Positions 3,205 through 57,680 are shown, counted from the stretch's first letter. The stretch is DNA of 64,000 bases from Escherichia coli (GCF_001677475.2 NZ_CP015229.1), one strand, 5' to 3'. The notes: generated by a model from the letters alone, not told the origin. A program made the numbers and translations.

Positions 3205-4362
3205 TTATCTTGATGTTTTAGATATTGCCGGTCCGGCAGCACGCAAAGTTAACTGACGCCAGAGCCATTCCACCGGCCCCTGGCGGAAGTAACGCAGCCA
3301 GATAACAGAGAAGAGGATATTCGCCAGCCATACCGGAATAACAAACGCCAGCAGCTCCAGGCGGTCAAAATGCATAAACAAACCGAGGTGGTAAAAAAGC
3401 GTGGTACAAATCAGCGTTTGCAATAGATAGTTGGTCAGCGCCATCCGTCCGACGCAGGCGATCGCAAGCACCAGCTTAAAGCGGCTCAATTGCGGCCAGA
3501 AGCCATAAAACAGCGACGCATAGCCAATCGCCTGAAACGGCGCACTCAGTTCCCGCGGCATTTGAAGTAAGAAGGCACACCAGCGATACGCCCAGTCCAG
3601 CTGCCATTGCAGGGCGATGGCAGGAAGGTTAATGATCACCCCAATCGCCACCAGCACAAAACCAGTACGACGATAGTGACGTAAGCTGAACTGCCCTTTC
3701 AGCCAGCCGCTGCGCATCAGCGCCGCACCAATGAGCATCATCCCTGCCAGTTGCCAGCCATACTGTGCGCCCAGTGCCAGTAAACTGTTCCCAACACCAT
3801 CGGCACGATTACTGATCGCTTCAACACCACCATGAAGTTTCCAGTATTTTTCATACAAAATAGTCGACGCATCAGGCGTCCAGGCACGGCTGGTCTGGCT
3901 GTCGGAAATCAGCCCCAATAACAGCAAAACGCCAAGCCCCACCAGATAAAGCATGACGCCGGTATTAAACAGGCTTTTTACCGATGGCGCATCGCGCACC
4001 AGCCGCCAGCAGATTAAGCCCACCAGCCCGTAAGCCAGCAGAATATCGCCGTCCCAGAACAATAAACCGTGAATAAAGCCCAGCAAGACTAACAGCGTTA
4101 ACCGCGACTGGATCCAGCGTCTGCCACGGGGCAGCAACATTTGCAGGCCCGCACCAAACAGCAGCGCAAAAAGCGTGAGGAATTTCACCTGGCCGATGAG
4201 ATCGAGAAATGCCCAGGTCCATGCATCCTGTGGCGTAATAGCGCCATACCAGGCGGGATTAAGATAAGCCGCCTTTGGTAGCCCAAAGGCGCTGATGTTT
4301 AATAGCAGGATCCCCAGAATGGCGACGCCGCGAACAAAATCGAGCGTGACGTTGCGCTCCAT
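3205..4362 (-). CDS. yeiB: Inner-membrane protein (DUF418 family)
   Basis: 385-aa hydrophobic multi-TM ORF; conserved position between galS and folE. Confidence 0.8.
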   Translation of the reverse strand: MERNVTLDFVRGVAILGILLLNISAFGLPKAAYLNPAWYGAITPQDAWTWAFLDLIGQVKFLTLFALLFGAGLQMLLPRGRRWIQSRLTLLVLLGFIHGLLFWDGDILLAYGLVGLICWRLVRDAPSVKSLFNTGVMLYLVGLGVLLLLGLISDSQTSRAWTPDASTILYEKYWKLHGGVEAISNRADGVGNSLLALGAQYGWQLAGMMLIGAALMRSGWLKGQFSLRHYRRTGFVLVAIGVIINLPAIALQWQLDWAYRWCAFLLQMPRELSAPFQAIGYASLFYGFWPQLSRFKLVLAIACVGRMALTNYLLQTLICTTLFYHLGLFMHFDRLELLAFVIPVWLANILFSVIWLRYFRQGPVEWLWRQLTLRAAGPAISKTSR

Positions 4363-4378
4363 GGTTCCTGCCTTTTAA

Positions 4379-5047
4379 TCAGTTGTGATGACGCACAGCG
4401 CGCAGAAACTCGTGGCGCGTATTCTGACTGGATTTGAACAATCCACCAAGAGAGGTCGTTGTCGTGGCACTGGTTGCATCGCGGATGCCGCGCGCTTTCA
4501 CGCAGTAATGCACCGCGTCGATAGAGACAGCCACGTTATTGGTGCCCAGCAGCGTTTGTAGCGCAATGAGAATTTGCTGGGTCAGACGTTCCTGTACCTG
4601 TGGGCGCTGGGCAAAGAACTGCACGATGCGGTTAATTTTTGACAGACCGATCACCGAATCTTTCGGGATATAAGCCACCGTCGCTTTGCCATCGATGGTA
4701 ACAAAATGGTGTTCACAGGTGCTGGTCAGGGTGATATCGCGCACGGTGACCATTTCATCGACCTTCATTTTGTTTTCAATGAGGGTGATTTTCGGGAAAT
4801 TGGCGTAATCCAGACCGGAGAAAATTTCATCGACATACATTTTAGCGATGCGATGCGGCGTTTCCATCAAACTGTCATCAGCCAGGTCGAGATTCAGCAG
4901 CTGCATGATTTCGGTCATATGACCAGCAATAAGGCTTTTGCGCGTTTCGTTATCCATTTCATGCACGGGCGGGCGCAGCGGTGTTTCCAGTCCTCGCGCA
5001 ACTAACGCTTCATGAACCAGGGCCGCTTCTTTACTGAGTGATGGCAT
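4379..5047 (-). CDS. folE: GTP cyclohydrolase I
   Basis: 222-aa [27 protein letters not shown]... containing the STCEHH motif. Confidence 0.95.
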
Positions 5048-6172: not shown

Positions 6173-8152
6173 TCAGAAGCGATAATCCACTGCCATAAAG
6201 TAACGACGTCCGTCTTCGTTATAGCTGTAGTCATCACGACTGAGATCCTTGTCGCCAAGGTTCAGCACGCCTGCGCGCAGTTTGACGTCTTTAGTTACCT
6301 GCCAGGCCGCGCCGGTATTCCAGATGGTATAACCGCCCGGTGTTTTAGCCGTAGCGCTGTCGGCTCGTTTCTGCCCGGTATAGTGCCCAGAAACATAGAA
6401 TGACCAGTCTTCCAGCGCCAGCGGTTTCCAGTCCAGCGTACCGTTAGCGGTATGGAACGGCAGATCGGATAGCGGTTTGTTTTCGCCGTTGCTGACATCA
6501 CGACCATCGTTGTAGGTGTAGTTGAGTGACAGTTTCCATTCATCGTTGAACGGAATTTTCAGTTCGGTTTCCACGCCCTGAATACGAGCTTTGTTAACGT
6601 TGTAGTAGCTAAATACCGGCACACCGTTCGCTGTAAAACCAACAAAGTTTTGGTAGCCCGGTGCAGCATTGACGTCAGACGTACGGCTGATGCTGATACG
6701 ATCTTTCACATCGTTACGGAAAACGGTAACGCTGGATTCAACCCCTTCCAGCCAGCCTTCTTCACCCATGTAGTAAAGCCCCAGCTCCCAACTTTCGCTG
6801 GTTTCTGGTTTCAGATCCGGGCTACCCACAATCTTACATGCGCCACGGCAGGAATTGCTCGTCCAGTCAGGGCTAAGTTGCAACAGAGAAGGTGCTTTAA
6901 AAGCTGTCGCCCAGCCCCCTTTCACCGTTACGGTGTCGGTGGCGTTATAAACCAGGTAGGCACGCGGACTCCAGTGTTCACCGTAGGTTTCGTGATCGTC
7001 CATACGCACGCCGGTCGTCAGCGCCAGCGGCTCGAAGATCCGCCATTCATCTTCCACAAATAGCGCGTACTGGCTGGCAGACGTTTTGGAGCTGGTTCCC
7101 CCGGTCAGGTTCACCGCATCACTAAGTTTGTCGTGACGCCATTCACCGCCAACCGTGAGAAACTGATTAATCGCCGTCAGCGGCAACGTGTATTTGCCGT
7201 CGACCGTATTGCTTTCGGAAGTTATCGGACTGCTGTTGCCAGGGTTTTTATTCTCGACTTTCTCACCGTAGTATTTCAGTTCGCTGGTGCCGTAATCCCA
7301 ACGCCCATTATGGCTGACGGAGTAGTTCTGGCGTTCCAGGCGGTTTTTGTCCAGCGAGTCGGAATCACGATCCTGACGGTCGAAACCGTATCCGGCAGTA
7401 AAATCGTGATTTTGATTCGGTGTCCAGGCAAATTCGACATTGCCGTCGCGGCTGGAGAATCCTTCAATACGCGGCGTTTCTCCGGTATCGGTTGTCGTTG
7501 AGTTTTGCGGGTCATCCTTTTCACGTTTTGCCAGGCTGCCGTAAGCTTTCATTCCCAGCACACCGTCAATTAATGGTCCGCTGGTAAAGAACTGACCGTT
7601 ATAGGTATCACCGCGATCGCGATGTTCCTGAATGGTGGTATCGACGGTAACGGTACCCGACCATTTCTGACCGATTTTTTTGGTGATGATATTCACTACA
7701 CCGCCGAGCGCATCGGAACCGTACAGCGACGACATCGGGCCACGAACCACTTCAATACGTTCGATGGAATCGACCGGGATCCAGTTCAGATCGAAATCAT
7801 TGTGGCGGAAGACGGCATTGCGGGAGTTAACGCGTTTACCGTCGACAAGAATCAGGGTATAGCTGCTGTCCAGACCACGAATACTAACGCCCTTACGGTT
7901 ATCCCCTTCGTTCGTCAGTTGTACGCCAGGCACTTCTTTGAGGACATCCTTCAGATTCTGTACCGGTTTTCGCTGTAGGTCTTCCTGGGTAATGACGCTG
8001 ATACTGGCGGGAGCATCTTTAAGGTTTTGTTCAACGGAAGATGCAGTGACAACCATCGTTTCGCCATCATCATCGACCGCTAACACAGGCCATGCACAAG
8101 AAATAGCGGACAAACACAGCCCGACCCGTACGAAAGGGTTCAACCTAAACAT
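6173..8152 (-). CDS. cirA: TonB-dependent catecholate siderophore / colicin I receptor
   Basis: 659-aa ORF with signal peptide, TonB box (ETMVVTAS), plug and beta-barrel ending in aromatic F. Confidence 0.95.
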
Positions 8153-8443: not shown

Positions 8444-9913
8444 TTATTTCTTATCGTTCTGCGGGAACTTCATTTCGCTGTAGCGTACGAAGTGAGTTCC
8501 TTTAATCAGCTTGTAGCCGAACCAAATAATCAGGAACAGCGGGATACCAATATACGTTGCCGCTACGCCGCCCCAGTCAATGGTATCTTTCAGGAATGCT
8601 TCGTAGTTCTGGCCCAAAGTGATAATCAGACACAGAATGAATGCGAAGATCGGCCCCAGTGGGAAGAAACCTGAACGGTACGGCAGATCGTTAATGTCGT
8701 GTCCCTGCAATACGTAACCGCGACGGAAGCGATAGTGGCTAATGGCAATCCCCAGCCAGGCGATAAAACCCGTCATCCCGGAGGTGTTCAGCAGCCACAG
8801 GTATACCGTCTGATTGCCAAACATGGAGGTCAGGAAGCACAGACCGGCAATCACCGTCGTCGCATACAGCGCATTACGCGGCACGCCACCACGCGACAGT
8901 TTAGCGAAAATGCGCGGCGCTTTACCGTCACACGCCAGGGTGTACAGCATACGAGTAGACGCATACATACCGGAGTTACCCGCTGACAGCACCGCCGTCA
9001 GAATAACTGCGTTCATCACCGCCGCCGCAGAGAGCAGACCCGCGTGCTGGAACACCAGGGTGAACGGACTGACGCTGATGTCTTTAACATCGTTACGCAG
9101 CAGGCTCGGATCGGTGTACGGAATAATCAGGCTGATAATCAGGATCGCGAACACATAGAACAACAGGATTCGCCAGAACACCTGACGTACCGCGCGTGGA
9201 ATGTTTTTCGCCGGATCTTCGGACTCGCCTGCAGCAATACCGATCAGCTCGGTTCCCTGGAAAGAGAAGCCGACAATCATAGCTACGCCGATCATCGCCG
9301 CAAAACCACCAGCAAACGGCGCTTCGCCGATTGTCCAGTTGCTCCAGCCCGCAGGCTGCGCGCCTTTGAAGATACCGATAATCATCAGCACGCCAACGAT
9401 GATAAAGACAATAACTGTCGTGACTTTGATCAGTGAGAACCAGTATTCCGCTTCACCAAAGCCACGAACTGAGATGTAGTTCAGCAGGAAGATAACGCCG
9501 AGGAACAGCGCACTCCAGATCCAGCCCGGTGTATCCGGGAACCACCAGCTCATGACCAGCTGAGCTGCAACCAGGTCAACGGCGATAGTCACCGCCCAGT
9601 TGTACCAGTAGTTCCAGCCCAGCGCGAAGCCAAAGCCTTCTTCAACATAGTTCTGACCATAAGTGGCAAACGAACCGGAAACCGGCATATATGCAGCCAG
9701 TTCACCGAGACTGGTCATCAGGAAGTAAACCATCAGGCCAATCAACATATACGAGAGCAATGCCCCGCCCGGACCTGCCTGAGAAATCGTTGCGCCAGAG
9801 GCAACAAAAAGACCTGTACCGATGGAACCGCCAATGGCAATCATCGTCAGGTGACGCGCCTTTAATTCACGGAGTAAGCCCGGCGCTTCTGTGGTTTTAG
9901 TTTCGGAAACCAT
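8444..9913 (-). CDS. lysP: Lysine-specific permease (APC family)
   Basis: 489-aa 12-TM amino-acid permease ORF, MVSETKTTEAPGLLRELKARHLTMIAIGGSIGTGLF. Confidence 0.95.
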   Translation of the reverse strand: MVSETKTTEAPGLLRELKARHLTMIAIGGSIGTGLFVASGATISQAGPGGALLSYMLIGLMVYFLMTSLGELAAYMPVSGSFATYGQNYVEEGFGFALGWNYWYNWAVTIAVDLVAAQLVMSWWFPDTPGWIWSALFLGVIFLLNYISVRGFGEAEYWFSLIKVTTVIVFIIVGVLMIIGIFKGAQPAGWSNWTIGEAPFAGGFAAMIGVAMIVGFSFQGTELIGIAAGESEDPAKNIPRAVRQVFWRILLFYVFAILIISLIIPYTDPSLLRNDVKDISVSPFTLVFQHAGLLSAAAVMNAVILTAVLSAGNSGMYASTRMLYTLACDGKAPRIFAKLSRGGVPRNALYATTVIAGLCFLTSMFGNQTVYLWLLNTSGMTGFIAWLGIAISHYRFRRGYVLQGHDINDLPYRSGFFPLGPIFAFILCLIITLGQNYEAFLKDTIDWGGVAATYIGIPLFLIIWFGYKLIKGTHFVRYSEMKFPQNDKK

Positions 9914-47539: not shown

Positions 47540-47616
47540 CGGCACGTAGCGCAGCCTGGTAGCGCACCGTCATGGGGTGTCGGGGGTCGGAGGTTCAAAT
47601 CCTCTCGTGCCGACCA
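47540..47616 (+). tRNA. proL: tRNA-Pro (anticodon GGG)
   Basis: CGGCACGTAGCGCAGCCTGGTAGCGCACCGTCATGGGGTGTCGGGGGTCGGAGGTTCAAATCCTCTCGTGCCGACCA; cloverleaf with GGG anticodon; encoded CCA absent. Confidence 0.9.
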
Positions 47617-47618
47617 AA
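47602..47618 (+). repeat. attL core (3' end of tRNA-Pro)
   Basis: CTCTCGTGCCGACCAAA, identical to the copy at 58597-58613. Confidence 0.8.
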
Positions 47619-47652
47619 TCGCCCACCGGAAAGCACCGAATAAGACAGGGAT

Positions 47653-47686
47653 AACCCGCTAATCACTTGATTGGCGGGTTTTTTTA
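47653..47686 (+). terminator. Rho-independent terminator downstream of proL (island-borne)
   Basis: AACCCGCTAATCACTTGATTGGCGGGTTTTTTT: stem-loop plus T7 run. Confidence 0.6.
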
Positions 47687-47740
47687 TGGTTTTTAGTCAC
47701 CGAACATCACCGGATTTATAAGCTATCAGCCGGATTTTTT

Positions 47741-47790
47741 AGTTATACGTTTAGTTATACGGGCTGGCGTATAACTAAAGCCGTATAACT
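47741..47790. repeat. Candidate integrase arm-type sites: 2 x AGTTATACG followed by 2 x CGTATAACT (inverted)
   Basis: TAGTTATACGTTTAGTTATACGGGCTGGCGTATAACTAAAGCCGTATAACT just upstream of int; related GCTA(C/T)ACG pair near attR at 58515-58535. Confidence 0.5.
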
Positions 47791-47824
47791 AAAACCCTGT
47801 TTTTTCGTGTGGAATCATAGACAT

Positions 47825-49066
47825 ATGGCGAGAAAAACACCCCCATTAACCACAGTGCAGATCAAAGCAGCCAGACCAGCGCAAAAGGAGTACACCCTAC
47901 AGGACGGCGGTGGGCTTTTTCTCCTGGTAAAACCGTCCGGATCAAAACTCTGGCGATTTTCCTACTACCGACCATCGGACAAAAAAAGAATATTGCTGAG
48001 TTTTGGATCGCTTGAAGATGTTTCCCTGGCTGATGCCAGAAAACGCCGTAGCGAGTACAGGACGTTAATCAGTGCCGGAACTGACCCGCAGGACCATGAG
48101 AAGAAAAAACGAGAGGCAGAGGCCCGAAGACAAGGGAACACGTTCGAAAATGTGGCGGCGGCATGGTACCAGGTGAAAATCAGCCAGAATCTGGCCCCCA
48201 ACACGATTAAAGACATCTGGCGTTCGCTGGATAAATATGTATTCCCGTTCATCGGCAACACGCCAATAGATACCCTCACCGCTCGCCGCTTTGTTGAGAT
48301 ACTCACACCCATTAAAGCACGCGGCAACCTGGAAACTCTGAAACGCGTTTTACAACGCATCAATGAAGTGATGGATTTTGCTGCCAACAGTGGGCTGATT
48401 GACATCAACACCGCCGCGAACGTCCGCAAGGCATTCCCTTCCCCCACTAAAAAGCATATGCCAACCATCCGACCGGAACAGCTACCGCAGCTAATGCACG
48501 ATTTATCGGTCGCCAGCATAGAACGGCAAACCAGATTGCTAATCGAGTGGCAACTGCTGACCGTAGCACGCCCAGCCGAAGCAGCCGCCGCACGCTGGGA
48601 AGAAATAGATCTCGATGCCGAAACATGGACGATTCCAGCCGGACGCATGAAGATGCGCCGTGACCATGTGATCCCTCTTTGCGGTCAGGCGATAGCTGTA
48701 CTGGAAACAATGAAGCCAATCAGCGCACACAGGGAACATGTTTTTCCCAGCCTTAAAAATCCAATGCTGCCAATGAGCAGCCAGACCGCTAACGCTGCAT
48801 TGCGCCGGATGGGATACGCTGGTGTGCTGGTGTCTCACGGATTACGCGCCATATTCAGTACAGCAGCGAACGAGGAAGGATTCGAGCCGGACGTAATCGA
48901 GGCCGCACTCGCACACGTGGACACGAACGAGGTAAGGCGAGCATATAACCGAAGTAACTACCTGGAAAAGCGCGTGGTGCTTATGCGCTGGTGGGGGGAA
49001 TTTGTAGAGGCCGCAGCTACCGGAGTGACCATAGCCAGTGGTAAAAGGGGTATCCGTGCCGTGTAA
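47825..49066 (+). CDS. int: Tyrosine recombinase / integrase, P4-like (N-terminal DUF4102-type arm-binding domain)
   Basis: MARKTPPLTTVQIKAARPAQKEYTLQDGGGLFLLVKPSGSKLWRFSYY... with C-terminal catalytic region (HGLRA...RAYNRSNY); adjacent to tRNA. The GTG at 47807 is an alternative start. Confidence 0.85.
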   Translation: MARKTPPLTTVQIKAARPAQKEYTLQDGGGLFLLVKPSGSKLWRFSYYRPSDKKRILLSFGSLEDVSLADARKRRSEYRTLISAGTDPQDHEKKKREAEARRQGNTFENVAAAWYQVKISQNLAPNTIKDIWRSLDKYVFPFIGNTPIDTLTARRFVEILTPIKARGNLETLKRVLQRINEVMDFAANSGLIDINTAANVRKAFPSPTKKHMPTIRPEQLPQLMHDLSVASIERQTRLLIEWQLLTVARPAEAAAARWEEIDLDAETWTIPAGRMKMRRDHVIPLCGQAIAVLETMKPISAHREHVFPSLKNPMLPMSSQTANAALRRMGYAGVLVSHGLRAIFSTAANEEGFEPDVIEAALAHVDTNEVRRAYNRSNYLEKRVVLMRWWGEFVEAAATGVTIASGKRGIRAV

Positions 49067-49164
49067 CTGTACAAAAAACCAGTAAAAGCGATGCAAACCA
49101 TGCCAAACCATCGTATAATTGCCACAAATTTAACGACAAGGCCGGAGTATATGAAAATTCTATT

Positions 49165-49395
49165 ATGCAAAATACCACCGCCTACGGCGAAGGGCTGCAA
49201 CTGGCGTTAATGGCAAATCGTGAATTCTGGTCAACATACGATCCGGAAGACAAATCAACAGCCCCCACAAAACACGAGGTAGTCAGTTTTTTGCGCTCGC
49301 GTGGTGCATCGAAAAATCTGGCTGAAAGCATCGACAAGGTGCTGAGGCCCACCAGCCTTAAATGCGGTGGGCGACCTAAGAAGTGGAAACGGTAA
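49165..49395 (+). CDS. Hypothetical small protein (76 aa) followed by a terminator-like hairpin
   Basis: ORF with basic C-terminus (GGRPKKWKR); hairpin ATAGCGGCCCTTTGCGGTCGCTATTTTTTT at 49401-49430. Confidence 0.35.
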   Translation: MQNTTAYGEGLQLALMANREFWSTYDPEDKSTAPTKHEVVSFLRSRGASKNLAESIDKVLRPTSLKCGGRPKKWKR

Positions 49396-49565
49396 TCACA
49401 ATAGCGGCCCTTTGCGGTCGCTATTTTTTTGCAGAAAGAAAAGCGTAATCAATGAGATAAAAAACAGTGGGTACCGTTTTAAAACGGTGGGTACTGTTTT
49501 TCCCGCCCTGCCCTGTTTTACCGTATTTATCACCGGAATACGCCGGATTAACGAGGTAAAACATA

Positions 49566-49772
49566 GTGGAAACAATCAGAAAAATACTTACCCGTCAGGA
49601 AGTAAAAAATATTCTGCGCATCAAGGCAGACAGTTCGCTACAGGACATGATCAACGCCGGAAAATTCCCGAAAGGCTTCAAAATCGGTCTGCGTCGTGTT
49701 GGCTGGTATGAAGATGAAGTGCTGGCCTGGCTGAAAGAGCGCGAGGAAGAAGCGCGCGGAACGGCTGCGTAA
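49566..49772 (+). CDS. alpA: AlpA-family (HTH_17) transcriptional regulator / excisionase-like protein
   Basis: GTG start with GAGG SD; 68 aa, LTRQEVKNILRIKADSSLQDMINAGKFPKGFKIGLRRVGWYEDEVLAWL matches the AlpA/prophage CP4-57 regulator pattern. Confidence 0.8.
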   Translation: METIRKILTRQEVKNILRIKADSSLQDMINAGKFPKGFKIGLRRVGWYEDEVLAWLKEREEEARGTAA

Positions 49773-50054
49773 TGGTGTGAGGCGTAACGCGATGAACATA
49801 ACAAAAAGCGCCCCGTTGCCGGAGCGCCCTTGCGAACAATTAACCTACTGCGCAAAAAATGAATCAGTGCAGTGGGATTATATCAACCGTGTAGCGAAGC
49901 GCCACAATTGCCGGATAACAGGCAAAACAAAGGCCACCCGCTACGGTGGCCCTTCGACACAAGCTACACGTTATCCCCAACGCATAAGCGCTGATTACTA
50001 TGCCGTGATTACATCCGGTTGGCAATGTGATCAGTGCGCTGGCTTGCTGGTGGG

Positions 50055-50234
50055 CTATTCCTGCTCTTTGGCCTTGCGTCGCTGGCGGCGTTTGATCTCG
50101 CCTTGCATTGACGCAATGATGAATTGTGATGTGCTTTCGCCTGATTCTTTCACTGATTCCATGGCGTTTACTATTTCGTGTGGTACACGAGCCTTTAGAG
50201 CTTGTGATTTTGCGTTTGTTGTACCCGTTGCCAT
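50055..50234 (-). CDS. Ribbon-helix-helix (Arc/CopG-like) DNA-binding protein; candidate island repressor
   Basis: 59 aa MATGTTNAKSQALKARVPHEIVNAMESVKESGESTSQFIIASMQGEIKRRQRRKAKEQE; GAGGA SD 6 nt upstream; terminator-like hairpin GGCCACCCGCTACGGTGGCC at 49932-49952 with T-rich tail on the minus strand. Confidence 0.6.
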   Translation of the reverse strand: MATGTTNAKSQALKARVPHEIVNAMESVKESGESTSQFIIASMQGEIKRRQRRKAKEQE

Positions 50235-50298
50235 TTCTATTCCTCTGTTGGATTGGTGGGGGACAGTATACACAGAAAAAGCACAAATAAAACTCTTA

Positions 50299-50335
50299 AT
50301 GTGGACCACACCTAGAGCATATAGTGGGCCACACC
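50299..50335. promoter_or_regulatory. Two palindromic operator-like sites (TGTGGACCACACCT and GTGGGCCACACCT) in the divergent promoter region
   Basis: GTGG-N-CCAC palindromes 24 bp apart between the RHH gene and the rightward small-gene operon. Confidence 0.45.
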
Positions 50336-50433
50336 TTGAGGTTATCAAGGTGCATAAATGCAAAGCCCCGCAAGTGTCGTTACCACTCGCAGGGCTTCTA
50401 ACCACCAACGATAGCAGAAGTATCGAGGTAGCT

Positions 50434-50640
50434 ATGTTAAATCATACCACACACCCGCAAGGGCGGGACTCGCACAACCTGAATAAATACATCTGGCGTT
50501 TTATCGCTCTGAGCACGGCACAACCGCGCGTGATTACCATTGAGGCCACCAGCGAACAGGAAGCACGTCAGCAATCTCCTGATGGCTGCGTGATGGTATT
50601 CGCCGCCCGTATTCGTCAGGAGGTGCGCCATGTGCAATAA
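50434..50640 (+). CDS. Hypothetical protein (69 aa), first gene of the rightward operon
   Basis: ATG with GAGGT SD; stop overlaps the next start (ATG at 50630). Confidence 0.4.
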   Translation: MLNHTTHPQGRDSHNLNKYIWRFIALSTAQPRVITIEATSEQEARQQSPDGCVMVFAARIRQEVRHVQ

Positions 50641-50866
50641 CACCCGTCCGGACGCAGCCGCCGAGGCTATCAGAACGCTGATGGACGCGCTGATTGATAT
50701 TTCTGTTATCGCAGACAAGGCGCATAAGCACGCCACCAGCGAAACAGAATATGCCGGGGCTTTCGTTCCTCACTCACTGGCTGTTATGCAATTTAGTGCT
50801 GATATGGCGCTGAATGAGGCCAGCAAAATTATCATGGCTGATATGGAGGTGGTGAGCCATGAATAA
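50630..50866 (+). CDS. Hypothetical protein (78 aa)
   Basis: Strong AGGAGG SD 5 nt upstream; translational coupling on both sides. Confidence 0.5.
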   Translation: MCNNTRPDAAAEAIRTLMDALIDISVIADKAHKHATSETEYAGAFVPHSLAVMQFSADMALNEASKIIMADMEVVSHE

Positions 50867-51107
50867 TCATGATTATGCGGGGGCGATTATGCGAAATAAA
50901 CGTGATATTGAAGACCTGGCATTTGAAGCCCTGCACTCTGCGAAAAAGATCAGGGAAGTCGTCAATATGTGGATGAACAGCCTTAGCACCGATAAATCCG
51001 ATAGCAGAGAGGAAATTCTTATTTCTTTGTTGTTAGACCTGGCAAATACACAGGTTTCTCTGACATCTGATATTGAACTCGCCGCTAAAAAGCTGCCTCT
51101 GGAGTAA
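50859..51107 (+). CDS. Hypothetical protein (82 aa)
   Basis: GGAGGTG SD; overlaps the previous stop. Confidence 0.5.
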   Translation: MNNHDYAGAIMRNKRDIEDLAFEALHSAKKIREVVNMWMNSLSTDKSDSREEILISLLLDLANTQVSLTSDIELAAKKLPLE

Positions 51108-51113
51108 AAAAAC

Positions 51114-51413
51114 ATGAAAAAGAAAAATTCTGGCTTTACTGCCAGTGGTCTCCCTCGGCCTGAAATCCGCCCCGGCGATATTTTCCGGGATAACTACGGC
51201 GGCACGGTAACGATTAAAAGTATTGCCGGACGGTGCGTTACTTACCGCCGTGATGGGTACAGCTACGACTGCGTGATGCCTGTTTATCAGTTCCGGCGTG
51301 ATTTTTCACTGATACAGGCCACACCACGCAAACAGCCCACCAGCAACGCAAAGGCACGGGCAAATATTCAGAAAATGAAAAACATGATTAACGCATTCAG
51401 GGGCACAAAATGA
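51114..51413 (+). CDS. Hypothetical protein (99 aa)
   Basis: GGAG SD; stop overlaps the pri start (ATGA). Confidence 0.45.
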   Translation: MKKKNSGFTASGLPRPEIRPGDIFRDNYGGTVTIKSIAGRCVTYRRDGYSYDCVMPVYQFRRDFSLIQATPRKQPTSNAKARANIQKMKNMINAFRGTK

Positions 51414-53215
51414 AACTGGCACCGAACTTAAAAAAACAGCCACACGACAAAATGACCGAAGTCATTATTTTTGCAGGTAGTGATGCCTGGGCGCACGCGA
51501 AACAGTGGCAGGAACAGGACGGGCGACTTGCTGGCGACAACGTGCCACCTGTATGGCTGGGAGACAGCCAGCTTGACGAACTGGCAGACCTGAAAATTAT
51601 CGACGATGGTCGCTATTGTGTCCGGCTGTACAAGGCAGGCCACATCAAGCCGTCAAATATTAATGCCATCGGGCAAAAGCTGGCGGCGGCAGGTGTACGG
51701 GATGCGAGATATTACCCTGAGGGAATGCACAGCCAGAAGCGGGAGGAGTGGCGCGAATATCTGGAGCGTGCGCGCCAGAATCTTTCTGATGGTCTGGTTA
51801 TTCAGCTTCCTGTTAAGAAAAAAACAGAAGACAGCGCCGCACCACTGGCGCTTAACCAGATGGGAGCAAGCCAGCGCGGCGAAGTTCTCCTGGCACGTTA
51901 TGGCGGCGAACTGGCAATTAATGCGGACTCTGACACCGTTCACCACTACAACGGCGTTGTATGGGAGCCGGTACAGGATAAAGAGTTACAGCGGGCTATG
52001 GCACAGATTTTTATTGATGCGGAGATCAGTTATTCGCAGAACGCCATCAAATCGGCGGTCGATACCATGAAGTTAAGTTTGCCCGTAATGGGGAATACCG
52101 CCCGTAACCTGATTGGATTCAGTAACGGTGTTTTTGATACCCGGACAGGCGATTTTCGGGAGCATGACAAAAACGACTGGCTGTTAATTGCCAGTGAATT
52201 ACCGTTCAGCCCGCCAGCAGAGGGGGAAACGCTGGCAACGCATGCGCCGAATTTCTGGAAATGGTTGCGCCGTTCGGTGGCAGAGAATGGCCGTAAAGCG
52301 GATCGCGTACTGGCGGCGTTATTCATGGTGCTGGCGAACCGATACGACTGGCAGTTATTTCTTGAGGTAACGGGGCCGGGTGGAAGCGGTAAAAGCGTAA
52401 TGGCGGAGATTTGCACCATGCTGGCGGGTAAGGCCAACACGGTATCGGCAAGCATGAAGGCGCTGGAAGATGCCAGGGAACGCGCGTTAGTGGTTGGCTT
52501 TTCGCTGATTATCATGCCGGATATGACCCGCTACGCTGGTGATGGTGCAGGTATTAAGGCCATTACAGGCGGTGACAAAGTGGCAATCGACCCGAAACAT
52601 AAAGCTCCCTACTCAACACGCATTCAGGCGGTCGTGCTGGCGGTGAACAATAACGCCATGTCATTCAGTGACCGCAGTGGGGGGATCTCACGTCGTCGGG
52701 TGATATTCAATTTTTCGGAGGTTGTACCGGAGAACGAACGCGACCCCATGCTGGCAGAAAAAATAGAAGGAGAGCTGGCGGTTGTGATTCGCCACCTGCT
52801 TACTCGTTTTTCTGACCAGGACAAAGCTAAACGCCTGCTGTATGAGCAGCAGAAATCAGAAGAAGCTCTGGTGATAAAACGCGAGGGCGATTCGCTGGTG
52901 GACTTCTGCGGCTATCTCATGTCGTCGGTAATGTGTGATGGTCTGTTAGTGGGTAATGCCGAAATTATTCCGTTCAGTCCGCGCAGATATCTTTATCACG
53001 CCTATCTGGCATATATGAGGGCACACGGATTCGGTAAACCTGTAACACTGACGCGCTTCGGTAAAGATATGCCGGGGGCAATGGCGGAATATGGCAGGGA
53101 GTATATGAAACGGAAAACGAAGCACGGTTTGCGTTCAAATGTGACCCTGACAGAGGATTCAGAAGACTGGATGCCATCATGTACATCGGTCACAAATGAC
53201 GATGGAAAAAATTAA
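51410..53215 (+). CDS. Replication protein: primase C-terminal-like / SF3-type helicase P-loop NTPase (satellite Pri-Rep)
   Basis: 601-aa ORF with Walker A TGPGGSGKS and a hydrophobic stretch ending in D (Walker B-like, VVGFSLIIMPD); immediately followed by an iteron-rich origin. Confidence 0.75.
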   Translation: MKLAPNLKKQPHDKMTEVIIFAGSDAWAHAKQWQEQDGRLAGDNVPPVWLGDSQLDELADLKIIDDGRYCVRLYKAGHIKPSNINAIGQKLAAAGVRDARYYPEGMHSQKREEWREYLERARQNLSDGLVIQLPVKKKTEDSAAPLALNQMGASQRGEVLLARYGGELAINADSDTVHHYNGVVWEPVQDKELQRAMAQIFIDAEISYSQNAIKSAVDTMKLSLPVMGNTARNLIGFSNGVFDTRTGDFREHDKNDWLLIASELPFSPPAEGETLATHAPNFWKWLRRSVAENGRKADRVLAALFMVLANRYDWQLFLEVTGPGGSGKSVMAEICTMLAGKANTVSASMKALEDARERALVVGFSLIIMPDMTRYAGDGAGIKAITGGDKVAIDPKHKAPYSTRIQAVVLAVNNNAMSFSDRSGGISRRRVIFNFSEVVPENERDPMLAEKIEGELAVVIRHLLTRFSDQDKAKRLLYEQQKSEEALVIKREGDSLVDFCGYLMSSVMCDGLLVGNAEIIPFSPRRYLYHAYLAYMRAHGFGKPVTLTRFGKDMPGAMAEYGREYMKRKTKHGLRSNVTLTEDSEDWMPSCTSVTNDDGKN

Positions 53216-53227
53216 ACTTATGGAATA

Positions 53228-53459
53228 ACTGTTCACCACTGTTCACCCTGTCATAAATGTCTTTTATATCAGTACATTATAGGGTGAACAGTTATTTGTG
53301 AACTGTTCACCAAACTATTCACTGTTCACCTTTTTGATTATTTATTGAGCTTTAAGGGTGAACAGTGGTGAACAGTTGGTGAATAGTTTTTGTGAAACTG
53401 TTCACCCCTTAACATCATGAATAAAAAGGGAAAATAGCAAAAGGTGAACAGGTGAAGAG
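53228..53459. repeat. Iteron-type replication origin: about 10 copies of ACTGTTCACC / GGTGAACAG in both orientations with AT-rich spacers
   Basis: CACTGTTCACCACTGTTCACC, GGGTGAACAGTT, GTGAACTGTTCACC, TTCACTGTTCACC, GGGTGAACAGTGGTGAACAGTTGGTGAATAG, GAAACTGTTCACC, AAGGTGAACAGGTGAAGAG. Confidence 0.75.
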
Positions 53460-53502
53460 TTAAAATGCAAAAATTTTATTTTATTGCTGTGAGGTAAAGC
53501 CT

Positions 53503-53748
53503 GTGACAACGAAGCACGCAAAAAAACCACAATCACACGCCCTTGATTTGACAGAACACTGGCTGAGGGTGGCGATAAAAATCATCGACCGCAACGCGGG
53601 AGAAGGATACGCGAAAGCGCATCCCGAACTGATAAGCGCATTCATGACCACGGCGGCGGCAAATTTTGCCACACTGACAGAACGGGAGATTGCCGAAGCG
53701 GAACAGGTGACAACCATCAACGTTAAAACCGGAGAGCAGACAGCATGA
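53503..53748 (+). CDS. Hypothetical protein (81 aa)
   Basis: GTG start with GAGGT SD; overlaps the start of the next ORF. Confidence 0.4.
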   Translation: MTTKHAKKPQSHALDLTEHWLRVAIKIIDRNAGEGYAKAHPELISAFMTTAAANFATLTEREIAEAEQVTTINVKTGEQTA

Positions 53749-54044
53749 CAGCACAGATAGCGGCTTGCGGGCGGCTGGTGGCTGACCCGCAGTTAAAGAC
53801 CACCAGCAAAGGGACACAAATGGCGATGGCGAGTATGGCGGTTCCCCTGCCGTGCAGCCAGGCAGATGACGGAACGGCGACGATGTGGTTATCTGTCCTG
53901 GCGTTTGGCAGACAGGCCGACGCACTGGCAAAACACCACAAAGGCGAACTCCTGAGCGTGGCGGGTAACATGCAGGTGAGCCAGTGGACAGGCCAGAACG
54001 GCGCGACCGGGCGGCAAAAAAGGTCAACAGGGCCAGGCCACTGA
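53745..54044 (+). CDS. SSB-like OB-fold single-stranded DNA-binding protein (short form)
   Basis: IAACGRLVADPQLKTT...WLSVLAFGRQADALAKHHKGELLSVAGNMQVSQWTGQNG follows the SSB OB-fold pattern (GxL..DPEL... W..V.xFG ... KG..V.V.G.L....W). Confidence 0.55.
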   Translation: MTAQIAACGRLVADPQLKTTSKGTQMAMASMAVPLPCSQADDGTATMWLSVLAFGRQADALAKHHKGELLSVAGNMQVSQWTGQNGATGRQKRSTGPGH

Positions 54045-54322
54045 CGCACTGAACAGGGCAAAACAACAGTCAGGGAATGATGAACCGTACGGCGATAATA
54101 TACCGTTTTAAATTCTGCAAACAAAAAGATGCCGGAAAAAAATAGATTTTCCGGCATGCTACATAAATCCCGACCAAAGGAAGTAAATACATTAACACGA
54201 ATTATCAGCACTGAAGTTGTCACGGCATATTTTATACAACATTGCACTTGGTTGCATGTATTCGCATAGCAGACATCGGTAATAGAATATATTCACAATT
54301 ATTTGTAATGAATGTAAAGAGG

Positions 54323-55369
54323 ATGAGTATGGTTGATTTATATTCGCCTACACAGCTTGTGCAGGTGGCTAATGCTGAAGATGTGCAAAAAAAATTAAAT
54401 GCGTTGTTTACCAGTTTGTTTTTCACTCGCTCGGTAATGTTTGAATCGAGAGACATTATTCTTGATACGATCGACGATCCAAATATCCCGATCGCGGCGT
54501 TTTGCTCTCCTATGGTGGGCAGTAAAGTTTCACGAGATGAGGGATACGAATCAAAAACAATTCGCCCTGGCTATATGAAACCGAAAAGCAGTATTGATCC
54601 AAATAAGTTAGCTGTGCGCCCTGCTGGTGTATCACCTGAGCAATACAATGCTTTTGGGGCGCGTAATATTAAAGTTAAACAGGCGATTGTAAATCAGGCT
54701 AAAGCTATTCGTGCACGTATTGAATGGCTTGCTGTTCAGGCAATCACAACGGGGAAAAATATCATTGAGGGCGATGGTATTGAACGTTATGAGCTGGACT
54801 GGAATATAAAACCACAAAATATCATCACTCAGTCTGGCGGTACTGAGTGGTCAGGTAAGGATAAAGAAACTTTTGATCCAAATGATGATATTGAGAGCTA
54901 CGCAGAATTTAGTGAGGGCGTCACTAATATCATCATTATGGGTGGTAATGTATGGAAGAAATACCGTTCATTCAGAGCGATAAAAGAGGCTTTGGATACC
55001 CGTCGTGGTTCTAATTCCGAACTGGAAACGGCCCTTAAAGACCTTGGTGATTCGGTGAGTTTTAAAGGGTATATGGGCGATGTTGCGATTGTTGTTTACA
55101 GCGGGCGTTATACCGACGAGGACGGAACAGAAAAACATTTCCTTGATCCTGATTTGATGGTGCTTGGCAATACGGCTCTTCAGGGGATTGTCGCCTATGG
55201 CGGTATTCAGGATCCGGAGCTAATCCGAATGGGGCTGACTAAAGCCGAACTTGCACCGAAAAACTATATTGTGCCTGGTGATCCGGCTATTGAATATGTG
55301 CAGACACATTCAGCACCACAGCCAATACCGGCCCGCATCAATCGTTTTGTTACCGTTCGCATTGGCTAA
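54323..55369 (+). CDS. Major capsid protein, lambda gpE family
   Basis: MSMVDLYSPTQL... with NITQSGGTEWSGKDKETFDPNDDIESYA, DTRRGSNSELETALKDLGDSVSFKG and GDVAIVVYSG, matching lambda E as recalled from memory (start may be the ATG at 54329). Confidence 0.8.
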   Translation: MSMVDLYSPTQLVQVANAEDVQKKLNALFTSLFFTRSVMFESRDIILDTIDDPNIPIAAFCSPMVGSKVSRDEGYESKTIRPGYMKPKSSIDPNKLAVRPAGVSPEQYNAFGARNIKVKQAIVNQAKAIRARIEWLAVQAITTGKNIIEGDGIERYELDWNIKPQNIITQSGGTEWSGKDKETFDPNDDIESYAEFSEGVTNIIIMGGNVWKKYRSFRAIKEALDTRRGSNSELETALKDLGDSVSFKGYMGDVAIVVYSGRYTDEDGTEKHFLDPDLMVLGNTALQGIVAYGGIQDPELIRMGLTKAELAPKNYIVPGDPAIEYVQTHSAPQPIPARINRFVTVRIG

Positions 55370-55378
55370 GGGGGAGCA

Positions 55379-55720
55379 ATGGCTACTCATTACACTGAAC
55401 TCATGTCTGGCACTGAAGCACTGGTTACTACGCTGGGGATATTTTCAGCCAATAAAGGGGTAATACCTGCGTTTACGCCACTGATGCAGGAAGATGCAAC
55501 TGGTGCGCTAGTGGTATGGGATGGAACGAGCGCAGGCAAAGCGGTTTATGTTTCCGCTGTACAAATCGACACAGCGAAAAAAACACAGGCACAGGTTTAT
55601 AAGACAGGTGTTTTAAATGTTGATGCTCTGAACTGGCCTGAGTCTGTAAAAGAACTGTCGGCAAAGGTTGCCGCGTTTGTTGGCTCAGGTATTTCTGTTC
55701 AGCCGCTGGCTCGTGTGTAA
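55379..55720 (+). CDS. Head decoration protein, lambda gpD family
   Basis: 113 aa; TPLMQEDATGALVVWDGTSAGKAV...YKTGVLNVDALNWPE...AAFVGSGISV parallels lambda D as recalled from memory. Confidence 0.75.
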   Translation: MATHYTELMSGTEALVTTLGIFSANKGVIPAFTPLMQEDATGALVVWDGTSAGKAVYVSAVQIDTAKKTQAQVYKTGVLNVDALNWPESVKELSAKVAAFVGSGISVQPLARV

Positions 55721-55731
55721 AGGGGGATACA

Positions 55732-56115
55732 ATGCAGAATCATTACAATGACCTTAAGCCAATTGCCGAAATGATGTATCCGGATCCAGCAGTAGAGGAA
55801 TTAAAGGCTATTGCTGACAAAATGCGTTTAAGTGAACGCCTTGTTGATATGAATCAGGTGATGGAACTTACTACCCTTAGCCGTCGCACATTGCTAAACC
55901 TTGAGGCTCGCGGAGAGTTCCCCGAACGCGTACAGGTTACGGAAGGGCGTAAGGCCTGGTATTTAAGTGAAGTGATCGACTGGATAAACAATATTCCTCG
56001 AGCTTCTGAATATTGCCGCGTACCTGTCCCAAAAAAGCCAGATGCGGCGCTATGCCTCAAGATTGAGCGTGTACGTCGCAATGCACGGGATGGTCGCTAT
56101 AAGTTGATTGGTTGA
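55732..56115 (+). CDS. AlpA/HTH_17-family DNA-binding protein with N-terminal extension
   Basis: LVDMNQVMELTTLSRRTLLNLEARGEFPERVQVTEGRKAWYLSEVIDWINN matches the AlpA-type HTH pattern; lies directly upstream of cos. Confidence 0.55.
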   Translation: MQNHYNDLKPIAEMMYPDPAVEELKAIADKMRLSERLVDMNQVMELTTLSRRTLLNLEARGEFPERVQVTEGRKAWYLSEVIDWINNIPRASEYCRVPVPKKPDAALCLKIERVRRNARDGRYKLIG

Positions 56116-56140
56116 TGAAATTAGGGCCCGTTCTGGCTGG

Positions 56141-56215
56141 CGGGTCCTTTCCGGCGATCCGGTAGGCTACGGGGCGGCGACCTTGCGGATTTTCGCTATT
56201 TATGAGCCTTTTCGG
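56141..56215 (+). other. Lambda-type cos site (cosQ-cosN plus conserved flank)
   Basis: CGGGTCCTTTCCGGCGATCCGGTAGGCTACG|GGGCGGCGACCT|TGCGGATTTTCGCTATTTATGA; the 12-nt GGGCGGCGACCT (56172-56183) equals the lambda cohesive end as recalled from memory. Confidence 0.75.
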
Positions 56216-56316
56216 GTTGGTGGTGGTGGTTTTGTTTTTCGCTCTATCTCTATGAATAAAAAGGGAAAGATAACACCAACACACCAACCTGAAACCTTAA
56301 CTAAGTGGGGATATTG

Positions 56317-56859
56317 ATGAAATCGCACCTGATGAACAAAAAAACTATGGCGCAAAGCTGCCGCGTAAGTGCGACAGCGTTCGACAAGTGGGGAGTAACT
56401 CCCGTTGAGCGTAAAGGCCGTGAGGCGTTTTATGATGTTGCCAGCGTGATAGACAATAGGGTTAACAATGCAATTAACCAGCTTACAAACGACAAAGGCG
56501 AGATTGATGATGATGAACTTTTACGCGTAAGAATCAGATTAATGACGGCCCAGGCGGAAGCGCAGGAACTTAAAAACGAGCGCGAACGCGGCGAGGTGAT
56601 TGATACAAAGTTTTGCATCTACGCGATTTCAAAACTGGCGAGTCAGATTTCATCAATCATGGACAGCCTCCCGCTCACAATGCAAAGGCGCTTTCCCGAT
56701 ATAAGGCCGTATATGCTGGATGAACTAAAAAGGGAAATAGCCAAAGCATGTAACGCATGTGCAAGACTTGACGAAAACCTGCCACAGATACTGGCTGATT
56801 ACCTGATGGAAACTACCGGAAGCGCGCCTGAGAAGTTGCTACAGAACAAAGGCGAGTAA
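56317..56859 (+). CDS. Terminase small subunit, lambda Nu1 family (no large subunit gene follows)
   Basis: RLMTAQAEAQELKNERERGEVIDTKFCIYAISKLASQISSIMDSLPLTMQRRFPD and C-terminal LKREIAKACNACARLDENLPQILADYL match lambda Nu1 as recalled from memory; gene sits about 135 bp downstream of cosN. Confidence 0.75.
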   Translation: MKSHLMNKKTMAQSCRVSATAFDKWGVTPVERKGREAFYDVASVIDNRVNNAINQLTNDKGEIDDDELLRVRIRLMTAQAEAQELKNERERGEVIDTKFCIYAISKLASQISSIMDSLPLTMQRRFPDIRPYMLDELKREIAKACNACARLDENLPQILADYLMETTGSAPEKLLQNKGE

Positions 56860-56932
56860 CCGCCGCCCCGTAACGGGCCATAATTCCAGGAGGGACCCGA
56901 CGACACCAGGCTATCAGAGCGATGGGGGCACA

Positions 56933-57214
56933 ATGACAGAAGCCGAAATACTGCGATTAATCCGCCGCGTTACCGGAATCAGCCAGCAGGCTGACGAACA
57001 GGCCACGCAGCCGGACAGCGTGACCGCTGAAAATTATGTGCGTGTTGTTGCTGAGGTGATGCGCCGTGATGGTATTGAGCTTAACGGCGTGGATATGCGC
57101 AACATACGAACAAGAGTCCTTGAGTTGCTGGCATACCGTCGCCGGATACAGACGTACAGGGAAAAAGCCAAAATAACGTACCAGTGGAAGAAGCCGGAGC
57201 GGTTACGGCGGTAA
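56933..57214 (+). CDS. Hypothetical protein (93 aa)
   Basis: ATG ORF downstream of terS-like gene; Arg-rich C-terminus; no recognised motif. Confidence 0.4.
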   Translation: MTEAEILRLIRRVTGISQQADEQATQPDSVTAENYVRVVAEVMRRDGIELNGVDMRNIRTRVLELLAYRRRIQTYREKAKITYQWKKPERLRR

Positions 57215-57235
57215 CTTGCTGAACTTAAAGCATAA

Positions 57236-57333
57236 TGGAAATTTGCACTCTGGCCTAACCCGTTAATATTTCAGCAAAGTGCAAATTTGCGTTCTGTAGC
57301 TGGTGGCTGGCAGAATGTAAATTTACATTCTGG
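57236..57333. repeat. Three related palindromic sites sharing an AAATTT core and ending in TTCTG or CTCTG
   Basis: GGAAATTTGCACTCTGG (57236), GTGCAAATTTGCGTTCTG (57279), CAGAATGTAAATTTACATTCTGG (57311; 20-bp perfect palindrome). Confidence 0.6.
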
Positions 57334-57337
57334 TGAT

Positions 57338-57637
57338 TTAATCATCTGATTTACCCAGCCCGTACCGGATTACCGTACAGTGAGCGCCATCGCTACCGAT
57401 ACGCACATCAAAGCGGGGTTCGCGCACTTTCACGCGGTACAGGATCCCATCATTTACCATAGCGTTTAACGTTCGTCGGGTTGCCTCTATGTGGTATCGC
57501 TGATATTCGGAACCATAGAGCAGCAATGTAACACCACGAACATCAAATGGTGGTTCTCCAGCCTCCACCCGCACCCAATCGCGATACTCAGGTTTGTAAA
57601 GTTCAAGAATCTGTTTTTTGTGCCTGGTCATTCTCAT
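57338..57637 (-). CDS. Hypothetical protein (99 aa), reverse-oriented accessory gene
   Basis: ATG preceded by AGGA SD 7 nt upstream; MRMTRHKKQILELYKPEYRDWVRVEAG...; no recognisable family. Confidence 0.5.
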   Translation of the reverse strand: MRMTRHKKQILELYKPEYRDWVRVEAGEPPFDVRGVTLLLYGSEYQRYHIEATRRTLNAMVNDGILYRVKVREPRFDVRIGSDGAHCTVIRYGLGKSDD

Positions 57638-57680
57638 GTGTGATTCCTTATTGTGGGACAGTACTGTCATACAATAAGCT

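Follow-up and report, generated by a model that had tools for sequence, protein, structure and literature searches.

The origin of Gram-negative PICIs is located directly 3′ of the gene for the replication initiator, and its iterons flank AT-rich DNA (Fillol-Salom et al. 2018, ISME J; PMC6092414). A temperature-sensitive plasmid carrying the rep-ori segment of EcCICFT073 formed colonies at 44 °C; deletion of rep left no colonies and deletion of ori significantly fewer (PMC6092414). A further origin treated in that study follows the same logic and placement, with a Rep family and iterons that differ according to the paper (PMC6092414).

The second relevant system is that of satellite phage P4. 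The 'ori type 1 repeat' annotated in its ori (9310-9413) and in its crr (4291-4590) is TGTTCACC (NC_001609). The crr lies directly 3′ of the alpha gene, and ori and crr are 4.5 kb apart in the same record. Type 1 repeats are presumably bound by the alpha protein. Such binding is also named in the title of Ziegelin et al. 1993, as that title is cited in PMC8628076, and the entry PDB 1KA8 corresponds to Yeo et al. 2002, as cited in PMC2777425.

Here we analyzed a stretch of 64,000 nucleotides of Escherichia coli DNA (GCF_001677475.2, NZ_CP015229.1), referred to as the window, with positions counted from its first letter. An initial annotation of this sequence had described a dense array of short repeats next to a primase-helicase gene and had proposed the array as the origin of a PICI-type island. 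In our reading, the array is probably the origin from which an 11-kb Gram-negative PICI replicates vegetatively (probability roughly 0.8). This kind of origin has already been described and one member has been validated; what stands out in this case is the P4 octamer and the layout of the repeats.

The island and its initiator protein

The insert is preceded on the chromosome by yejK, yejL, yejM and tRNA-Pro(GGG) and followed by the gene for the yejO autotransporter, narP and the ccm genes. Copies of a 17-bp direct repeat are found at 47602-47618 and 58597-58613, and the island therefore spans 47619-58613, about 11.0 kb (Table 1). All of its genes are on the plus strand. Those up to the array encode a tyrosine integrase, an AlpA-like regulator, an Icd-like protein, small ORFs, a DUF4222-type protein and a 601-aa Rep, while those 3′ of the array encode an 81-aa protein, an SSB fragment, a lambda gpE-like major capsid protein and a gpD-like decoration protein. 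The right part of the island contributes a second AlpA-like protein, the small terminase subunit (TerS, 56305-56859) and a PerC-like activator. PHROG annotation of all island ORFs identified none as sid, psu, delta or epsilon.

The island is a Gram-negative PICI of the EcCICFT073/EcCIATCC25922 type. Its gene set and order are those of the Gram-negative PICIs of Fillol-Salom et al. 2018 (PMC6092414), and Table S1 of that study places EcCIATCC25922, EcCIED1a.1, SdCI1012 and SbCISb227 at the yejM site and gives PICI sizes of 10.5-11.4 kb, which the length found here matches. The ATCC 25922 island has the same gene order as the window island, with 90% identity in Int and 86% in TerS. LR881103, deposited as an induced-prophage genome, is a relative that has the same array and a Rep with 75% identity. 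The PICI-type assignment of the initial annotation is thus borne out by the gene set, the single coding strand, the size of ~11 kb, the 17-bp direct repeat at tRNA-Pro and the yejM site.

Table 1 Features of the island, the rep gene and the iteron array in the window. A plus iteron is TGTTCACC read on the plus strand, and iteron positions are the starts of the core octamers.
Feature	Position	Strand	Basis or remark
attL, 17-bp direct repeat CTCTCGTGCCGACCAAA	47602..47618	+	3′ end of tRNA-Pro(GGG); tRNA 47540-47616
attR, second copy of the 17-bp repeat	58597..58613	+	
rep ('pri-rep'), 601 aa, P4 alpha/D5 family initiator-helicase	51410..53215	+	Pfam, PHROG, P4 alpha identity
Rep N-terminal domain, aa 1-133, TOPRIM-like fold	51410..51808	+	Probably vestigial primase
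Rep D5_N and SF3 helicase P-loop core, aa 158-492	51881..52885	+	7OLA primase-helicase match, P4 alpha, Pfam
Rep C-terminal winged-helix origin-binding domain, aa 493-589	52886..53176	+	PDB 1KA8
Iteron array, proposed ori	53229..53459	.	12 copies of (C)TGTTCACC, both orientations
Plus iterons, exact	53230, 53240, 53304, 53323, 53399	+	
Minus iterons, exact	53283, 53357, 53367, 53443	-	
Degenerate iteron TATTCACT	53316	+	Position conserved in relatives
Iteron GGTGAATA	53378	-	
Iteron GGTGAAGA	53451	-	
Unit 1	53229..53290	.	Rightward 53230, 53240; AT-rich spacer 53248-53282; leftward 53283
Unit 2	53303..53385	.	Rightward 53304, 53316 (degenerate), 53323; spacer 53331-53356; leftward 53357, 53367, 53378
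Unit 3	53398..53459	.	Rightward 53399; AT-rich spacer 53407-53442; leftward 53443, 53451
P4 ori core match, iteron for iteron	53357..53459	.	Orientations identical
AT-rich right flank TTAAAATGCAAAAATTTTATTTTAT	53460..53490	.	Least stable 25-mer of the region; candidate unwinding element
First post-origin gene, 81 aa, phrog_1231	53503..53748	+	Bounds the non-coding gap on the right
Exchangeable replicon cassette (helicase, binding domain, array)	51822..53538	+	DNA similarity
RM13514 (NZ_CP006027.1), PICI TGTTCACC array and P4 ori core	4535054-4535300 and 4564617-4564767		

Several other features of the island were noted. The SSB-like ORF (53745-54044) has 99 aa compared with 136-149 aa in the CFT073, ATCC25922 and RM13514 islands and therefore looks C-terminally truncated, and an AT-rich gap (54045-54400, GC about 0.35) lies between it and the capsid gene. 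Within 54242-55720 the gpE-like capsid gene precedes the gpD-like decoration gene, the reverse of their order in lambda; the EcCICFT073 homologues c1499 and c1500 were each dispensable for interference in the 2018 study (PMC6092414). The perC gene is 3′ of ssb in CFT073 and is located at 57681-58052 here. A run of about 12 GGCT tetranucleotides, which could be slippage-prone, occurs upstream of attR at about 58163-58210. For the 287-aa ORF at 49777-50640, the match to a known family (phrog_6196, Icd-like/'repressor') is confined to the last 83 aa, and RefSeq annotates fragments and pseudogenes at its counterpart in relatives; the real gene within this interval is probably short. Direct and inverted repeats of the TTAGTTATACG type are found beside int (47736-47795) and near attR (about 58535-58560). 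They resemble the 'att site core' listed for PICIs at the yejM site and are probably integrase arm-type sites, and the repeat at which crossover actually occurs seems to be the tRNA-Pro 3′ end.

Rep matches phrog_864 with an E value of 4e-190 and contains the Pfam domains D5_N, DUF5906 (P-loop) and Pox_D5 C-terminal, and its residues 134-596 are 49% identical to residues 313-776 of P4 alpha. Residues 493-589 match PDB 1KA8, the origin-binding domain of P4 alpha, with an E value of 2.4e-24. A wing hairpin, KRKT-KH-GLRS, is predicted at residues 567-576; an AF2 model of the binding domain (pLDDT 50), which was used for topology only, has the order H-H-H-beta-beta, and what the wing contributes in domains of this kind is described in PMC2777425. 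The description of the protein as a primase-helicase in the initial annotation holds in part. The helicase and origin-binding domains are clear, whereas the P4-type N-terminal DnaG-type primase domain is absent from Rep, and its N-terminal 133 aa look like a TOPRIM remnant that lacks the catalytic Glu. Because of the missing Glu, Rep itself probably does not prime, and the 'DNA primase' annotation that has been widely propagated for these Reps is probably wrong for catalytic function.

An iteron array 3′ of rep

Between 53229 and 53459 the window contains nine exact TGTTCACC octamers, two copies with one mismatch and one degenerate copy, in both orientations (six rightward and six leftward when the degenerate copy is included). 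With the pattern CTGTTCACC and up to one mismatch, 11 sites fall in this interval, nine of them exact. Across the whole window the same pattern has 41 matches against 11.9 ± 3.7 expected, a count that none of 100 shuffles reached. TGTTCACC itself occurs 15 times in the 64 kb, compared with 1.9 expected, and nine of the 15 are within 53230-53450. Coordinates, motif, copy number and the presence of both orientations had all been given correctly in the initial annotation, whose 10-mer (ACTGTTCACC / GGTGAACAGT) extends to full length in eight copies.

The 601-aa ORF ends at 53215, which places the first iteron 14 bp past the rep stop codon and thus directly 3′ of the gene, as had been described. 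The array is also non-coding as claimed, in that no ORF of at least 60 aa occurs between the end of rep and 53503, the sole overlapping ORF being one of 44 aa on the minus strand. Iterons within the clusters are phased at 10-11 bp. A tandem-repeat finder reported periods of 10-11 bp in just 2.5-3 copies, on which a CRISPR array was rejected, in agreement with the initial annotation.

The AT-rich tracts that had been noted between the repeats are reflected in a GC content of 0.30-0.37, against about 0.5-0.6 on either side. Among the 25-mers of the window, those of the three spacers and of the right flank (53460-53484) are at the 98.8th-99.9th percentile of lowest stability (top 0.1-1.2%), with the spacer of unit 1 (53257-53281) at the 99.8th and the right flank at the 99.9th. 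Four tracts are candidates for melting: 53248-53282, 53331-53356, 53407-53442 and 53460-53490. DnaA boxes, IHF sites, GATC and oriC 13-mers are absent from the array region, where a single Fis-like match was found. A scan of the gap predicted neither a plus-strand promoter nor a terminator, and operon transcription therefore probably crosses the origin.

From these features we infer how binding, melting, helicase loading and dependence on host primase might be arranged. Following island induction, Rep would be made from the rightward operon, and its C-terminal winged-helix domain would bind the TGTTCACC iterons, with the bound sites phased at 10-11 bp within clusters and facing inward across the three AT-rich spacers. 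The bound protomers may then assemble the SF3 helicase ring, which would open a very unstable AT tract, either one of the spacers or the flank at 53460-53490, and host primase and Pol III would subsequently carry out theta replication.

Correspondence with the origins of EcCICFT073 and P4

The layout of the array is that of the EcCICFT073 origin (6997-7270 of the EcCICFT073 locus, L003). In both, two rightward iterons are followed by an AT spacer, one leftward iteron, three rightward iterons, a second spacer, leftward iterons and lastly a leftward pair, and the first AT spacer contains the same TCAGTACATTA. The iteron is TGTCTACC in EcCICFT073 and TGTTCACC in the window, and identity between the two Reps is 69% for residues 1-133 but falls to 45% in the helicase and to 33% in the C-terminal binding domain. 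The whole block of helicase, binding domain and ori is a different cassette. As described for the origins of Gram-negative PICIs, the repeats are found 3′ of rep in a PICI and are short iterons flanking AT-rich DNA, and the placement that the initial annotation had called usual for a PICI ori is the one published for the class (PMC6092414). The plasmid maintenance experiment that had been proposed with it has already been done in this sister island, since maintenance by rep and ori is published for EcCICFT073.

The right half of the array can be superimposed on the P4 ori core. Its iterons start at offsets 0, 10, 21, 42, 86 and 94 in 53357-53459, compared with 0, 10, 21, 43, 86 and 96 in P4 9310-9413, and this six-iteron core has the arrangement of three iterons, one inverted iteron, an AT stretch and two further iterons. 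About 125 bp can be aligned between the window and P4 ori, the AT-rich right flank included. The iteron is the type 1 repeat of P4 and not specific to PICIs, and half of the array reproduces the P4 ori core position by position. As judged from sequence, the origin in the window condenses the P4 replicon into a single site, placed where P4 has crr.

Since the P4 region directly 3′ of alpha is crr, a cis element that P4 requires, and not the mapped ori, position alone does not prove that initiation takes place at the array. It could instead be a crr-like cis-acting replication enhancer, to which Rep binds, as P4 alpha does to crr, while DNA synthesis starts elsewhere in the island. The array is exactly at the P4 crr position, directly 3′ of the initiator gene, and units 1 and 2 resemble the crr unit, which has an AT stretch between two iterons and two inverted ones. 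We nevertheless consider an enhancer of this type unlikely, because the array corresponds in its right half to the P4 ori core and not only to crr, and because rep and the adjacent ori of EcCICFT073 are by themselves enough for plasmid maintenance (PMC6092414). In addition, scans with TGTTCACC and CTGTTCACC found no second iteron cluster in the island or in the 64-kb window, the other island copy of TGTTCACC being a single one inside the rep coding sequence. Many relatives have this lone copy (52642-52649, minus strand) as well; because it falls on codons of the helicase motif AVNNN, it is probably a coding coincidence.

Plasmid iteron arrays commonly serve both replication and regulatory or copy-control roles. 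In the unidirectional operon of the island, the array separates rep from the genes further downstream, and with no terminator predicted, transcription must cross it. It might accordingly be mainly an operator or copy-control site, through which Rep represses or insulates the ssb/capsid operon or at which origins are paired ('handcuffing'), with initiation as a secondary function. This seems unlikely to us: there is no plus-strand promoter-like site in or beside the array, its architecture and unstable AT-rich tracts are origin-like, and the homologous P4 and EcCICFT073 sites are replication elements. Such a role could also coexist with origin function instead of replacing it.

Iteron type, cassette exchange and relation to known replicons

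The proposal that the array is the origin of the island is supported both by the layout shared with EcCICFT073 and by the association of iteron type with the DNA-binding domain of Rep. EcCIATCC25922 occupies the att site of the window island and resembles it in Int (90%) and TerS (86%), yet has a TGTCTACC array and a CFT073-type Rep. EcCIRM13514, by contrast, has a different att site and Int and no terS or capsid genes, and carries nine TGTTCACC copies together with a Rep that is 86% identical to that of the window (89% in the binding domain). Among other elements, EcCI042 combines a RepA-type helicase with AAAGTGAG repeats, and in the Serratia phage Scapp, a true phage, a distant alpha-family gene is followed by an inverted AAAAGTGCAA array. 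In Pasteurella Pmp7 the intergenic region is short, and a few GTGAA-type half-sites were all that was found in it. Across the islands compared, the iteron sequence goes with the DNA-binding domain of Rep and not with the integrase or TerS.

The same comparison bears on whether the repeats are binding sites for TerS in packaging or for the integrase or AlpA, as arm-type or excision sites. The island does encode its own TerS, Int and two AlpA-like proteins, and packaging and recombination sites are often repeat-rich. However, this is highly improbable, and pac or arm sites were rejected on the two-by-two comparison of EcCIATCC25922, with similar Int and TerS and different iterons, and EcCIRM13514, with a different Int, no TerS and the same iterons; moreover, different repeats (TTAGTTATACG) adjoin int. 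A structured non-coding RNA was likewise rejected and can be dismissed, since the long hairpins formed by the inverted repeats gave only spurious Rfam matches in cmscan, to eukaryotic miRNA precursor families and far under gathering scores (19-32 bits vs 53-249), as expected for any palindromic DNA, and since the conserved units are 8-bp motifs in both orientations with freely varying spacers and not paired stems.

Comparison of the DNA indicates how the replicon is exchanged. The window shows 76-82% similarity to the islands of CFT073 and ATCC25922 as far as 51822 (about Rep residue 137); the similarity is then lost and resumes at about 53538. With the RM13514 island, by contrast, all of 51408-53558 is 82% similar. 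From the break between 51822 and about 53538 it follows that helicase, binding domain and array move together. The left junction of this cassette is inside rep, at the boundary of the N-terminal domain and D5_N, and the right junction is just past the array. Islands sharing one att site carry different cassettes.

A natural variant of the iteron was found in the contig IMGVR_UViG_2784132061_000002 (L083, 4700-4945). Its Rep is 89% identical to that of the window, whereas each of the roughly ten iterons keeps its position but has the sequence TGTTCAT(T/C/A). Six changes separate the two binding domains, which are 94% identical, and five of these fall together, converting KRKTKHGL to KKRTTAGV. 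The low-confidence model would place these substitutions on the beta-hairpin after three helices, the expected location of the wing. An array of the L083 type was not found in E. coli genomes or phage records, and a further IMG/VR scan gave no other member; the specificity switch, known from a single contig, is therefore an n = 1 observation. The natural iteron and wing variants TGTTCACC, TGTTCAT and TGTCTACC constitute a ready-made small system for the recognition code of this family of winged-helix initiators, for which TGTTCACC, TGTCTACC and TGTTCATT form a candidate set of probes.

The positions of the nine exact copies are shared by 80 related loci. The wing KRKTK[H/N]G always occurs with 8.6-9 TGTTCACC copies on average, in about 160 locus entries of which many are the same contigs fetched twice. 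Common polymorphisms affect one of 96 iteron columns compared with 23 of 142 spacer columns among 61 distinct sequences (Fisher p = 4e-5), and when the iteron mask was shifted circularly, an equally low variability was reached in only 3 of 237 cases. A Mann-Whitney test of per-column variability over all columns was not significant (p = 0.21), so that support for selection on the iterons comes from the common-variant and circular-shift tests only, applied to sequences that are phylogenetically related.

At 90% identity or more, the array is present in 593 of 5426 complete E. coli genomes (about 11%), and the P4 ori core is present in 1005 of the same 5426. An identical array together with an identical Rep was also found in IMG/VR (L004). 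In RM13514, the TGTTCACC PICI array and a 100% identical P4 ori core are about 30 kb apart (Table 1). Some E. coli genomes have up to six copies of the array, such as NZ_CP148493.1 with four places, and several islands with the same Rep specificity can thus reside in one cell.

The shared octamer, the six-iteron spacing and the homologous binding domains, in which the wing KR[K/H]TK-x-G is conserved between the window Rep and P4 alpha, raise the question of whether P4 and PICI satellites recognize each other's origins. On sequence grounds this is possible, although we hold it only tentatively and think it somewhat doubtful. If so, P4 alpha could fire or titrate the PICI ori, and the PICI Rep could bind P4 ori and crr, resulting in replication cross-talk or incompatibility between satellite families that are regarded as independent. 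L083, with its TGTTCAT iterons and five wing substitutions, would then represent an escape from cross-talk through a switch in specificity.

The analysis adds an origin annotation for a PICI subtype that is common in E. coli and confirms the published rule that iterons are found 3′ of rep. In the searchable literature, where Fig. 2a of PMC6092414 gives the iteron sequences as an image only, we found no statement that this PICI subtype has the P4 iteron and the layout of the P4 ori core. The 'distant homology' by which Pri-Rep and alpha are described in PMC6092414 understates the relationship for this subtype, a point that we also did not find in the searchable literature. The replicon of helicase, binding domain and iterons is a swappable cassette that would share its specificity with satellite phage P4, which speaks against a merely distant relationship of the P4 and PICI replication modules.

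Compared with P4, the window Rep is 50% identical to alpha in the helicase and 48% in the binding domain and is therefore nearer to alpha in both than to the EcCICFT073 Rep (45% and 33%). An iteron region is directly 3′ of the initiator gene in both systems, but P4 splits the equivalent iteron units between ori and crr, whereas those of the window are contiguous in one compact cluster. P4 type 2 repeats are absent next to the origin: CAYTTAAAG with up to one mismatch has 27 matches against 29 expected, and only one of them is in the array. P4 alpha has an N-terminal primase domain of about 310 aa that the window Rep lacks, and P4 has sid, psu, delta and epsilon where the island has lambda-type capsid, decoration and terS genes and perC. 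The origins of the plasmids pSC101, R6K, RK2 and F likewise have repeated initiator sites by an AT-rich unwinding element, with possible copy control. Their iterons, however, are direct repeats of 17-22 bp, compared with the inverted repeats of 8-10 bp found here, and RepA-type winged-helix initiators of plasmids recruit host DnaB, usually with DnaA boxes, whereas the initiator in the window is itself an SF3 helicase and its origin has no DnaA boxes.
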